This document shows, one piece after another, positions 27,590 to 35,421 of a stretch of 64,000 nucleotides of DNA. How positions within the stretch are numbered: position 1 is the first letter of the stretch; the number at the start of each line of letters is the position of its first letter. Source of the DNA: Acidimicrobiia bacterium (GTDB lineage: Bacteria; Actinomycetota; Acidimicrobiia; Spongiisociales; JAOTWH01); assembly GCA_041619955.1 (NCBI GenBank), contig JBFKDA010000001.1:7307-71306 (forward strand), read 5' to 3'. The notes beneath the pieces were generated by a model. It was not told the DNA's origin. It did not search any database and worked only from the letters and a program-made list of their open reading frames with translations. A program made the translations under genes and the position numbers.

Positions 27590-28930
27590 GTGCCCCCCCA
27601 GTTCGATCCCGCCTACTACAACACCGTCGACCAGGCGTTCCACGCCGACTGGACGATCCAGAAGCTCACCCGCCAGGAGCTGACCCGGCGGGCGGTGGCC
27701 GAGCTCTGGCCTGACGGCCACCCGACCTCGCTCGTCCAGGTGGCCGGCACCAGCGGCAAGGGCTCGACGTGCCGGCTGCTCGAAGCGGCGCTGGGTACCG
27801 CGGCACCCAGCGGGGCCTACCTCAACCCGCACGTGTTCGACTACCGGGAGCGGTTCTCGATCGGCGGCGAGCCCCCGGCCCCGACAGCGGTGACTGCCGC
27901 GTGGGAGGGCACGGTGCTGCCGTACTGCGTCACCGCCAGCGCGGACCGCGGGATCGTGCACACGTTCGCCGAGGTGGGGATCCTGCTGGCCCTGACGCTG
28001 TTCGACCGGTTCGGGGTGGCCTGGGCGGCGATGGAGACTGGCCTGGGCGGCCGGTACGCCCAGCTGCGCGGGCTCGACGTGGCGGCCGGCGTGCTCACCA
28101 ACGTCGGCGACGACCACCCGGTGAGCCTCGGGACCGAGCCCTGGCAGCGGGCGCTGGACAAGGCGGGCATCGCCCGCCATGACGTCCCGCTGTTCACCTC
28201 GGAGTCCGACCCGGAGATGCTGGCGTGGATACGGGGAGTCGCCGCCGGCGCCGGGGCCGACCTCGTGGAGGTCGGCGACGGCGAGGTGGCCGCGGTCCGG
28301 GACGGGCTCGGCGATCCGGCCGCGGAGGCGCTCGCCGCCAACCCGGTGCAGCACCGCAACATCGCACTTGCGCTGGCGACCGCCCGCCACCTCGTCCCCG
28401 ACCTCGACGCCGCGGCGGCGCTCGCCGCCATGGCGGCGGTCCGCTTCACGGGCCGGCTCAGCGAGGTGGCGCCCGGCGTCTTCGCCGACATCGCGCACAA
28501 CCCGGACAAGACCGCCGCGCTCGCCGCCGAGGTCCGCCGGCGCGAGATGGCGCCGGTCCTCGTCGTGGGCCTCTCCGGGGAGCGCCGGGCGCCCGAGGTG
28601 CTCGGCCCGCTGCTCGACGTGGCGGCGGCGGCGGTCGTCGTGACGCCGCCGTACCGCGGACGCGCGGCCGAGGAGGTGGCCGGCGAGATCGCCGCGGCCG
28701 CCCCGGACCTGGCGGTCGAGGTGGTCGCCGACCCGCGCCGCGCGGTCGAGGCCGCCCGCCGGCTCGGCCCGGGGCCGGTGCTGGTGACCGGGTCCACCTA
28801 CGCCGTCGACGCGGTCCTCAACGACGATCCCTACCTCCGCCATCTCAACGCCACGATGGGGTGGCGGTTCGATACCCCGGTGTACGAGCCCGGCAAGGGC
28901 CCCGGCAGGCCCGTCTCGCCGAGCTCCTAG
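27590..28930 (+). CDS. Mur-ligase family protein, FolC-like (folylpolyglutamate/dihydrofolate synthase)
   Basis: P-loop [18 protein letters not shown] about 50 aa from the N-terminus. 446 aa. C-terminal Mur-ligase-C-like region. The FolC assignment rather than another Mur-ligase paralog is uncertain. Confidence 0.6.
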
Positions 28931-34477: not shown

Positions 34478-35421
34478 GGCGCCGCCACCTCCCGGGTCAC
34501 GGCGTCGCGGAGCTGGCGGTGGACGAACGCCGGGTCGCCGAGGCGGCGGCGCAGCTCGCGCTCCATCGCGGCGATCGGGACGAGGTTCTGCGGGGCCCGG
34601 GCGTCGATGTGCGGCTCGGAGCCGACCTCGGGCAGCAGCGCGGCGGTGCGATCCGCCAGCCCGCGCGCCCTCTCCAGCCCCACCGCCCGGGCGACCTCGC
34701 AGCGCACCACGCCCGACCAGCTGTGGCCGTGGTTCGTGGTGCCGAGCCGCAGGTACCACGAGAACCGGGGGTACGTCGTGATCTCGAACAGCGGGGTGCG
34801 CTCACCGGGGCCGAGCGCCGCGACGGCGGCCATCCGGTCCGGCGGCAGGTACGGCGCCCGGTGCGACTTGACGTACCCCACCTTGTCGGTGCCCGACAGC
34901 TCGTTCAGCGGGCCGTCGGCGACGACGAAGTAGCCGCCGTGGGCCAGGTCCTCTGCGAGCCGGCTCTCGGCGCTGCGCATCGCGCCGTGGAAGTGCCGGA
35001 TCAGCGACGAGGGGTCGCGGTCGGGCACGGTCTCGGTGCGGTAGGCGAGGCTCGGACCGACCGCCGGGAACTGCTCGTCCCGTCCCCCGGCCAGCACCAC
35101 CATCCGGTCGATGGAGATGTCGACGATCTCCGACCGGCGCTCGTGGCGGCGCCACAGCACGGCCGCGACCCCGTACGAGCCGCAGATCCCCGGCAGCGGC
35201 CCGAGTACCGGGTCGTCGACGGTGACCCTGGCGTCGATGCGGCGGACGCCGTCGACGAAGGCGACCACCGGCACACCGTCGTCGCGGCCCGGCAGCGGCT
35301 CACACGCACCGGCGACCTCGACGTCGGCGTCGACCGCGCCCACCACCGGCCCGAGGTCGTCGTCGGCTTCGAAGGGGCTGCCGTAGTCGGGCGCCCATTC
35401 CTCGACGTGCAGCTTGGCCAT
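34474..35421 (-). CDS. NurA-like nuclease (RNase-H-like fold)
   Basis: AFVDGVRRID (NurA motif-I-like xiDG) and a later VVADGPL. 315 aa. Translationally coupled to the HerA-like ATPase. Assignment by motif only. Confidence 0.5.
   Translation of the reverse strand: MAKLHVEEWAPDYGSPFEADDDLGPVVGAVDADVEVAGACEPLPGRDDGVPVVAFVDGVRRIDARVTVDDPVLGPLPGICGSYGVAAVLWRRHERRSEIVDISIDRMVVLAGGRDEQFPAVGPSLAYRTETVPDRDPSSLIRHFHGAMRSAESRLAEDLAHGGYFVVADGPLNELSGTDKVGYVKSHRAPYLPPDRMAAVAALGPGERTPLFEITTYPRFSWYLRLGTTNHGHSWSGVVRCEVARAVGLERARGLADRTAALLPEVGSEPHIDARAPQNLVPIAAMERELRRRLGDPAFVHRQLRDAVTREVAAP

Follow-up and report, generated by a model that had tools for sequence, protein, structure and literature searches.

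Does an actinobacterium carry the end-resection operon of archaea, and if so, what is it there for? The question is raised by a block of four genes in a 64,000-nucleotide stretch of DNA from an Acidimicrobiia bacterium (GCA_041619955.1, contig JBFKDA010000001.1, positions 7,307 to 71,306 of the forward strand), which we call the window and in whose numbering all coordinates are given. Four intact, co-directional genes of the minus strand, nurA, herA, sbcD and sbcC, fill positions 28927-35421. A sequence-only reading of this DNA had described them as an archaeal-style NurA-HerA-Mre11-Rad50 block in an actinobacterium. We find that the locus is a typical member of a widespread and under-annotated family of bacterial NurA-HerA-SbcCD operons.

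The GC content of the window is ~74%, which makes raw lists of open reading frames (ORFs) noisy; the gene set was chosen by a codon-position GC filter, and the GC fraction at third codon positions is 0.86-0.94 across all four genes, a coding signature. The first gene, nurA (35421..34474, minus strand), has an ATG start and encodes a bacterial-type NurA nuclease of 315 residues. Its stop codon overlaps, within a GTGA, the GTG start of herA (34477..32762, minus strand), whose 571-residue product is a bacterial-type HerA, predicted to be a hexameric translocase of double-stranded DNA (dsDNA). Beyond a spacer of 162 bp (32600..32761, minus strand) follow sbcD (32599..31433, minus strand), which encodes an Mre11-type phosphoesterase nuclease of 388 residues, and, after a gap of 1 nt (TAG-C-GTG), sbcC (31431..28927, minus strand), which encodes a Rad50-type ABC ATPase of 834 residues with a coiled coil and a CPVC zinc hook. 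Public gene calls on two 99.8%-identical contigs from metagenome-assembled genomes (MAGs) of an Acidimicrobiia lineage (GCA_041585235.1 and GCA_041603135.1) give the same products of 315, 571, 388 and 834 residues. The identities that the sequence-only reading had assigned to the four co-directional genes are borne out by homology and motifs, and the GTGA coupling, the 1-nt gap between sbcD and sbcC, the repeat-bearing spacer, which it had put at about 160 bp, and the CPVC hook were each located in the sequence. The sole correction to its factual statements concerns the strand, which it had omitted. At its 3′ end, sbcC overlaps a convergent Mur-ligase-like gene (27590-28930, plus strand) by 4 nt (28927-28930), which leaves no space for an intergenic terminator after the operon.

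The 315-residue protein matches Deinococcus radiodurans NurA (drNurA; 7F6D_H) at E=3.3e-23 and Thermotoga maritima TM1739 (1ZUP) at E=3.8e-5 in a phmmer search of the PDB, the latter being the first bacterial NurA structure (PMC9960219). With a profile built from diverse NurA homologues, the same two matches reach E=1.4e-59 and E=9.3e-23. Six residues, D57 (in VDG), E152, D169 (in DGP), K185, R275 and P277, are invariant across 33 homologues, and A276, Q278, N279 and L280 are nearly so. The invariant residues agree with published accounts of an RNase H-like metal site in NurA, and the phmmer alignment places D57, E152 and D169 on the putative equivalent of the drNurA catalytic site. The profile did not reach the archaeal NurA structures (2YGK, 3TAI), the PDB search at E≤10 having returned the two bacterial structures only, and the kinship between bacterial and archaeal NurA rests on published fold comparison. 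Scans of the 315-residue protein gave no Pfam, NCBIfam or PADLOC match.

The 571-residue protein aligns with D. radiodurans HerA (drHerA; 7F6D_B) at E=4.9e-123 in phmmer, with residues 3-562 matched to residues 13-602; the alignment covers the HAS-barrel region at the N terminus as well as the RecA-like ATPase and the inserted helix bundle. A HerA profile retrieves drHerA at E=3.8e-222 and the archaeal HerA 4D2I at E=1.3e-4. By orthology to 7F6D, we would expect a hexameric ring, a DNA-stimulated ATPase and a 6:2 complex with NurA. Thus the PDB searches place the 315-residue protein in the NurA family and the 571-residue protein in the HerA family. A Pfam check that the sequence-only reading had proposed (PF09376 for NurA and PF01935 for HerA) was run on both proteins and gave no match; for HerA, no Pfam family appears at E≤0.1, PF01935 included, and a precomputed Pfam domain is recorded in 0 of its 120 closest homologues. 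We attribute these nulls to Pfam models that miss the clade and not to proteins that lie outside the families. A conjugative coupling ATPase or an FtsK/EssC-type protein was also considered for the 571-residue product and rejected, EssC and EccC matching at E~0.02-0.06 over 70 residues as against 1e-123 for HerA.

The P-loop of this HerA had been taken to suggest a degenerate or unusual mode of nucleotide binding. Its sequence, SGISGVATKTS (residues 157-167), does depart from the canonical GxxxxGK[ST]: in the form GxxGxATK[TS], it is one residue longer than GxxGxGK[ST] and has Ala-Thr in place of Gly before the Lys. Yet no variation is seen at G158, G161, A163, K165 or T166 among 25 homologues with identities down to 33%, and the Walker A sequence GISGVATKTS is identical in drHerA, where the crystal structure has K175 paired with the β-phosphate of ADP and T176 coordinating Mg2+ (PMC9960219). 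Mutation of drHerA K175 or of D487/E488 impairs both ATPase activity and resection (PMC9960219). Likewise, the Walker B motif (VVVLDELNKYAP, residues 443-454) provides D447 and E448 (in VLDELNKYAP), which are invariant in 25 diverse homologues together with R471 and R473, and the motif LLVGAQQ occupies residues 478-484; each of the HerA motifs quoted earlier is thus found at defined residues. The non-canonical P-loop is a family trait held in common with the ATPase-active drHerA, and not a defect. Because drHerA has weak Mg2+-ATPase activity, which Mn2+, DNA and NurA stimulate (PMC9960219), the loop may still confer a kinetic peculiarity, as a studied trait of the family.

SbcD scores 145 bits against TIGR00619 (sbcd; cut-off 77.65) and 50.2 bits against Pfam Metallophos (E=5.4e-13), and the motifs HTSDWH, GDLFD, GNHD and GHIH are all present. 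SbcC is over the cut-offs of Pfam AAA_23 (71.3 bits) and SMC_N (55.7 bits) and has a Walker A motif (GPIGSGKSS), a signature motif (LSGGETF), a Walker B motif (FFLDEGF) and an H-loop (VVSH), with the CPVC hook mid-protein at residues 406-409. When bacterial and archaeal models are set side by side, SbcD obtains 158 bits on the bacterial sbcd model versus 44 on archaeal Mre11, and SbcC 195 bits on the sbcc model versus 79 on Rad50. Since the bacterial models outscore the archaeal ones, the parts are of bacterial type, and the label "archaeal-style" stands for the organization alone, namely four roles gathered in one co-directional cluster.

How common is such a cluster among bacteria? Used as a search pattern, the HerA P-loop motif retrieved at least 597 genomes. 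For a survey of gene neighborhoods, diverse HerA homologues were aligned, one genome per species was scanned with the alignment, and the best 80 loci were kept. Of the 77 informative loci among these best 80, 73 have sbcD downstream of herA at a distance of no more than 3.5 kb, and all four genes are found in 55 of 58 informative loci. The linkage is kept down to 46% HerA identity and in several phyla, its carriers being Acidimicrobiia, other Actinomycetota, Thermoleophilia, Chloroflexota, Dehalococcoidia, Eremiobacterota, Gemmatimonadota and Acidobacteriota. The sequence-only reading had not expected NurA and HerA to be fused into one block with SbcCD in bacteria; in the bacterial HerA clade such a block is the norm, and the four-gene neighborhood, the conservation of which that reading had proposed as a test, is kept in related genomes.

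Two stable gene orders occur. Most loci are of type 1, nurA-herA-sbcD-sbcC, and in most of these nurA is less than 150 nt from herA. The order herA-sbcD-sbcC-nurA belongs to a single HerA clade that comprises Micromonospora, Amycolatopsis, Egicoccus and some Acidimicrobiia. As the linkage outlasted the relocation of nurA to the other end of the cluster, functional coupling of the four genes is favored. A few loci have other arrangements: two (L057 and L060) have nurA-herA without sbcDC, as in Deinococcus and Thermus, one (L050) has herA-sbcD-sbcC with no nurA detected within the contig, and two (L062 and L081, the latter from Pseudonocardia thermophila) have herA without detectable nurA or sbcDC nearby.

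Within the window, the 162-bp herA-sbcD spacer parts the two gene pairs, and one might suppose that nurA-herA and sbcDC are independent transcription units that came to be adjacent by chance. The spacer has a repeat structure of its own, the pairs are unlinked in Deinococcus and Thermus (PMC5448004), and the two surveyed loci with nurA-herA and no sbcDC could be read in the same way. We nonetheless regard chance adjacency as extremely improbable: it would have to recur in 73 of 77 loci from several phyla and to have outlasted the move of nurA with the four genes still together. In most of the loci from relatives, moreover, herA and sbcD overlap or are ≤30 nt apart, with overlap seen in close relatives, and in a locus with a 91% identical HerA (L086) the gap is 25 nt. 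On its coding (minus) strand, the spacer contains neither the PafBC motif discussed below nor a terminator-like site; two terminator-like matches lie on the non-coding strand, and the promoter/terminator scan found no sigma-70 promoter-like site.

The spacer itself is lineage-specific, being absent from relatives, and we read it as the outcome of a recent duplication, local and in tandem, of the sbcD 5′ region. It contains an imperfect 57-nt direct repeat (32597-32653 and 32663-32719, 81% identity, period 66) that takes in the start region of sbcD, and the repeat core GAGCGAAGCGAAG has two matches in the window, both in the spacer, against 0.21 expected. No Rfam match was obtained in the whole window, spacer included, and the fold z-score of the spacer, −1.26, is not significant. 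With no Rfam family, a weak fold, a core found nowhere else in the window and no counterpart in relatives, the spacer was rejected as a conserved element, a structured RNA or a mobile repeat. In the first repeat, an ATG opens a 16-codon ORF whose stop lies 18 nt ahead of sbcD. In the second, there is a perfect 10-bp inverted repeat, TCATCGCTCT / AGAGCGATGA (32596-32626, minus strand), with the sbcD ATG inside the stem, and one may speculate that this stem damps sbcD translation.

Upstream of nurA lies a divergent gene for a short-chain dehydrogenase (SDR), which public calls start 6 nt from nurA (277 residues); the sequence favors a start at 35482 (MTEQLSGRVALVTGAS..., 259 residues), which leaves a divergent promoter region of 60 bp. 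There, GTCGG-GCCCCATCGC-TACCAT (35428..35448, minus strand) ends 6 nt ahead of the nurA ATG. The published PafBC motif is tGTCgg(N10)tA(N3)T, with a strictly conserved GTC and a 3′ half formed by the SigA −10 element (PMC8635444), and the site upstream of nurA (GTCGG-N10-TACCAT), a promoter motif of PafBC (RecA-NDp) type, is an exact match to that consensus. Given a −10 hexamer only 6 nt from the ATG, the mRNA is predicted to be leaderless.

The motif is not peculiar to the window. Among the surveyed loci, 34 of type 1, every one of them Actinomycetota-type, have GTC-N12-TANNNT at 6-9 nt before the nurA start, whereas no Chloroflexota, Dehalococcoidia, Eremiobacterota or Gemmatimonadota locus has it at nurA. 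Its background is 5.2e-5 per position, and of the 69 copies counted across 1.33 Mb of actinobacterial loci, approximately half occupy the nurA-upstream position. Where the gene order is the other one, the motif is found ahead of herA in four loci (L051, L069, L082 and L085), and the version upstream of Micromonospora herA reads TGTCGT-N10-CAGGAT. In Micromonospora (L064-L080), an ATG or GTG follows a PafBC-like motif by 7 nt at ~40-110 nt upstream of herA. In the two loci translated (L064 and L072), it opens an upstream ORF of ~14 codons, the stop of which shares an ATGA with the start of herA; the remaining Micromonospora loci resemble these two, and the arrangement suggests a leaderless upstream ORF coupled to herA translation.

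Six exact matches to the motif occur in the window, where 1.8 are expected, and four of them are 6-7 nt ahead of an ATG: that of nurA and those of a 992-residue UvrD/PD-(D/E)XK protein, a 267-residue PD-(D/E)XK nuclease and a 432-residue protein. The 992-residue protein is the first product of an AdnAB-type helicase-nuclease operon (10638-16871, plus strand), both genes of which encode UvrD helicase and PD-(D/E)XK nuclease domains. The first gene spans 10666-13644; the second is an ORF at 13551-16871 on the same strand, of at most 1106 residues, and its true start is probably later. The best PDB matches of these proteins are 7SJR_A and 6PPJ_A, which we take to be mycobacterial AdnA. Upstream of this operon, GTCACACCCCGGCGATAACGT lies 7 nt before the ATG, in the same PafBC-type leaderless layout as at nurA. 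Because adnA is a strict PafBC target in mycobacteria, where it is exclusively PafBC-dependent (PMC8682763), the adnA motif in the window serves as an internal positive control, and we consider it probable that the nurA promoter is PafBC-controlled and damage-responsive. With AdnAB behind the same motif in the window, NurA-HerA-SbcCD would be a second, co-regulated resection route and not the sole one. The remaining two genes are that of the stand-alone 267-residue nuclease (7942-8772, plus strand; motif 7942-7962, ATG at 7969) and that of the 432-residue protein (56416-57742, plus strand; motif 56416-56436, ATG at 56444), which has no Pfam, NCBIfam or PDB match and is a candidate for an uncharacterized member of the DNA-damage regulon.

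LexA was also considered as the regulator and rejected, as no LexA/SOS box (TCGAAC-N4-GTTCGA) is present in the nurA promoter or the spacer. Two sites with one mismatch each lie deep in coding sequence, in herA (34296-34311) and sbcC (31214-31229). They were dismissed because they are intragenic and because the pattern is over-represented in this GC-rich window, with 73 matches at ≤3 mismatches versus 25 expected. This ~3-fold excess is probably an effect of codon usage and composition and not of regulation.

A HerA motor, a nuclease and an SMC/Rad50-like protein could alternatively be the motor, effector and sensor of an anti-phage or anti-plasmid system, as in Sir2-HerA, DUF4297-HerA, Lamassu and Wadjet. 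The HerA profile weakly matches defense-type HerA structures (8XAU at 1.7e-7, and also 9C1M, 8YHO and 8ZIQ, in a range of 1e-7 to 5e-4). Against PADLOC, HerA matches mad8 at 6.9e-6 over its C-terminal ATPase core only, and SbcC matches LmuB, mad3 and PbeC. By tblastn, distant HerA homologues are found in two phage records, and one copy of the family resides on a linear plasmid of Streptomyces sp. BB1-1-1 (L088, NZ_CP134205.1). In that cluster, the order is herA-sbcD-SMC-hypothetical, the last gene in the nurA position; RefSeq labels the product of herA an "ATP-binding protein" and that of the last gene a "hypothetical protein", and next to the cluster are Wadjet-like TIGR02678, TIGR02680 and DUF2397 genes and an ImmA/IrrE protease. 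In view of this plasmid copy, we assign a small probability to a defense role in some contexts.

For the window locus, however, a defense function is very unlikely. Neither NurA nor SbcD has a PADLOC match, and the SbcC matches are generic ABC-ATPase similarity. The locus occupies a housekeeping site, syntenic with CoA-transferase, YchF and TrkA genes in distant Acidimicrobiia; the remaining window holds ordinary metabolism and signaling, with no tRNA, Rfam match, mobile-element or defense neighbor. Across Acidimicrobiia, HerA (75-82% identity) is more conserved than YchF (67-70% in the same genomes), with SbcD at ~60%, NurA at ~55% and SbcC at ~45%, and the HerA tree tracks the gene-order clades. 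The family is nearly absent from plasmids, with a tblastn search of 72,556 plasmid records yielding six, one of which is actually an 11.85-Mb chromosome. Finally, the promoter motif is held in common with adnAB, a true repair operon. Relative to the two sibling MAGs, 15 of the 18 substitutions in the block are synonymous and 3 are non-synonymous; this synonymous excess and the stronger conservation of HerA than of YchF indicate that the block is under purifying selection. We take the operon to be chromosomal and vertically inherited.

From the gene identities, the conserved residues, the cross-phylum linkage and the promoter motif, we judge it likely that the operon processes the ends of DNA double-strand breaks. 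Upon DNA damage, a PafBC-type activator would enable RNA polymerase to start at a −26/−10 hybrid promoter, 6 nt ahead of the ATG of nurA, giving a single leaderless nurA-herA-sbcD-sbcC transcript. SbcCD, as a Mre11/Rad50-type complex with coiled-coil arms joined by the CPVC zinc hook, would recognize and clip broken, hairpin-capped or blocked DNA ends. A HerA hexamer would then hydrolyze ATP through the K165/T166 P-loop and the D447/E448 Walker B residues and pump duplex DNA into a NurA dimer, which would split the strands and degrade mainly the 5′ strand at its acidic metal site (D57/E152/D169). The 3′ tail would be left for RecA, in a route parallel to AdnAB. The NurA-HerA steps of this mechanism are those demonstrated biochemically for the D. 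radiodurans orthologues (PMC9960219). Induction, co-transcription across the spacer and complex formation are steps that we infer, and the GTGA overlap, the 1-nt gap and the lack of a terminator-like site on the coding strand are features of operon structure.

The same proteins could instead have a main task other than recombinational resection, such as the processing of hairpins or stalled forks, the bulk degradation of damaged DNA or the handling of DNA transfer, with the linkage to SbcCD reflecting a shared substrate. In bacteria, the damage phenotypes of nurA and herA mutants are mild or paradoxical, AdnAB is already available for long-range resection, drNurA-HerA can degrade both strands depending on the translocation state (PMC9960219), and TdtA, a HerA-family paralogue in Thermus, is reported to have a role in DNA donation (PMC5365140). 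A PafBC-type damage promoter in common with adnA nevertheless points to a damage response, drNurA-HerA makes 3′ tails in vitro (PMC9960219), and archaeal end resection runs on the same four-gene logic; we therefore hold a primary task outside resection to be unlikely.

Several observations do weigh against the processing of double-strand-break ends by this operon. For nurA or herA deletions in D. radiodurans and T. thermophilus, modest or even improved damage resistance has been reported, and the in vivo role of bacterial NurA-HerA has been called controversial (PMC9960219). We trace the controversy to the absence of linkage to SbcCD in those organisms and to mutants with weak or paradoxical effects. 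The cooperation of bacterial NurA-HerA with SbcCD is one that we infer from gene linkage. As to the proteins themselves, SbcC scores 194.9 bits against TIGR00618, under the cut-off of 478.5, probably because its coiled coil is short. In NurA, residue 40 is Trp in most homologues and Cys in the window, where codon 40 (35302) is TGT; both of the 99.8%-identical sibling MAGs have TGG, and Cys40 may reflect variation between strains or a mistake in the assembly.

On a broader scale, nurA-herA-sbcDC may be an ancient bacterial resection module whose linkage was lost in Deinococcus and Thermus and which, in Actinomycetota, sits in the LexA/RecA-independent PafBC regulon as a second pathway beside AdnAB. 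We offer this proposal tentatively, at slightly under an even chance. If it is true, bacterial NurA-HerA gains an in vivo context, acting with SbcCD after damage, and the "archaeal" four-gene logic either predates the divergence of bacteria and archaea or had two separate origins, from parts that are not orthologous. The combination of linkage, PafBC promoter and AdnAB coexistence amounts to a testable hypothesis of function, and Micromonospora, Amycolatopsis and Nonomuraea are culturable carriers. There is also an annotation gap, in that Pfam and NCBIfam miss both HerA and NurA, which RefSeq names "ATP-binding protein" and "hypothetical protein", respectively. We found no literature on an actinobacterial NurA-HerA-SbcCD cluster or on a PafBC link, although Iyer et al. 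2004 may already mention a bacterial herA-sbcCD linkage. A review counts Actinobacteria among the phyla with NurA/HerA homologues. What is added here is the breadth of the linkage, with nurA-herA locked to sbcDC in most bacteria that have the bacterial HerA type, and the probable PafBC control; the core complex had been solved, and the architecture had been noticed once before.

Studies of bacterial NurA-HerA are, to our knowledge, limited to Deinococcus and Thermus. The closest known system is NurA-HerA of D. radiodurans (DR_0836/DR_0837; 7F6D, 7WRW, 7WRX), whose proteins are full-length orthologues of those in the window, with the same Walker A (GISGVATKTS) and Walker B (DE) residues, with nurA likewise upstream of herA in one operon and with the same hexameric dsDNA pump feeding a dimeric nuclease that we presume here. 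It differs in that drNurA is 369 residues long, as against 315 here, in that the nurA-herA pair of Deinococcus and Thermus is not beside sbcCD, and in that Deinococcus does not use the PafBC regulation predicted for the window. In addition, the Deinococcus-Thermus phylum is without RecBCD/AddAB (PMC9960219), whereas the window organism has AdnAB.

The archaeal herA-mre11-rad50-nurA operon of Sulfolobus and Pyrococcus combines the same four roles in one co-directional cluster. It is damage-induced, as predicted for the operon in the window. Its gene order is matched by the herA-sbcD-sbcC-nurA clade (Micromonospora, Amycolatopsis and some Acidimicrobiia) and not by the window, which has nurA-herA-sbcD-sbcC, and its parts differ, with bacterial NurA and HerA less than 20% identical to the archaeal proteins (PMC9960219). 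The order found in the window was already reported as nurA-hepA-sbcD-sbcC in Oceanithermus profundus (Blesa et al. 2017, PMC5448004), with the same reading as an archaeal-like architecture for double-strand-break repair. There it was regarded as a peculiarity of one Thermales genus that had recruited sbcDC secondarily (PMC5448004), whereas our survey finds the four-gene state to be common across phyla. Sir2-HerA and DUF4297-HerA (8XAU, 9C1M, 8ZIQ) have the HerA/FtsK-type ATPase core in common with the window protein, a likeness confined to the C-terminal ATPase region; the window locus lacks a Sir2 or DUF4297 effector, matches no PADLOC system and occupies a stable chromosomal housekeeping site. 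Mycobacterial AdnAB, the long-range end-resection machine of Actinomycetota, belongs to the PafBC regulon and has in the window the same GTC-N12-TANNNT leaderless layout as nurA. Its folds are unrelated, a UvrD-type helicase with a PD-(D/E)XK nuclease, and its operon has no SbcCD partner. Set against these systems, the locus extends a known system and leaves current understanding standing.

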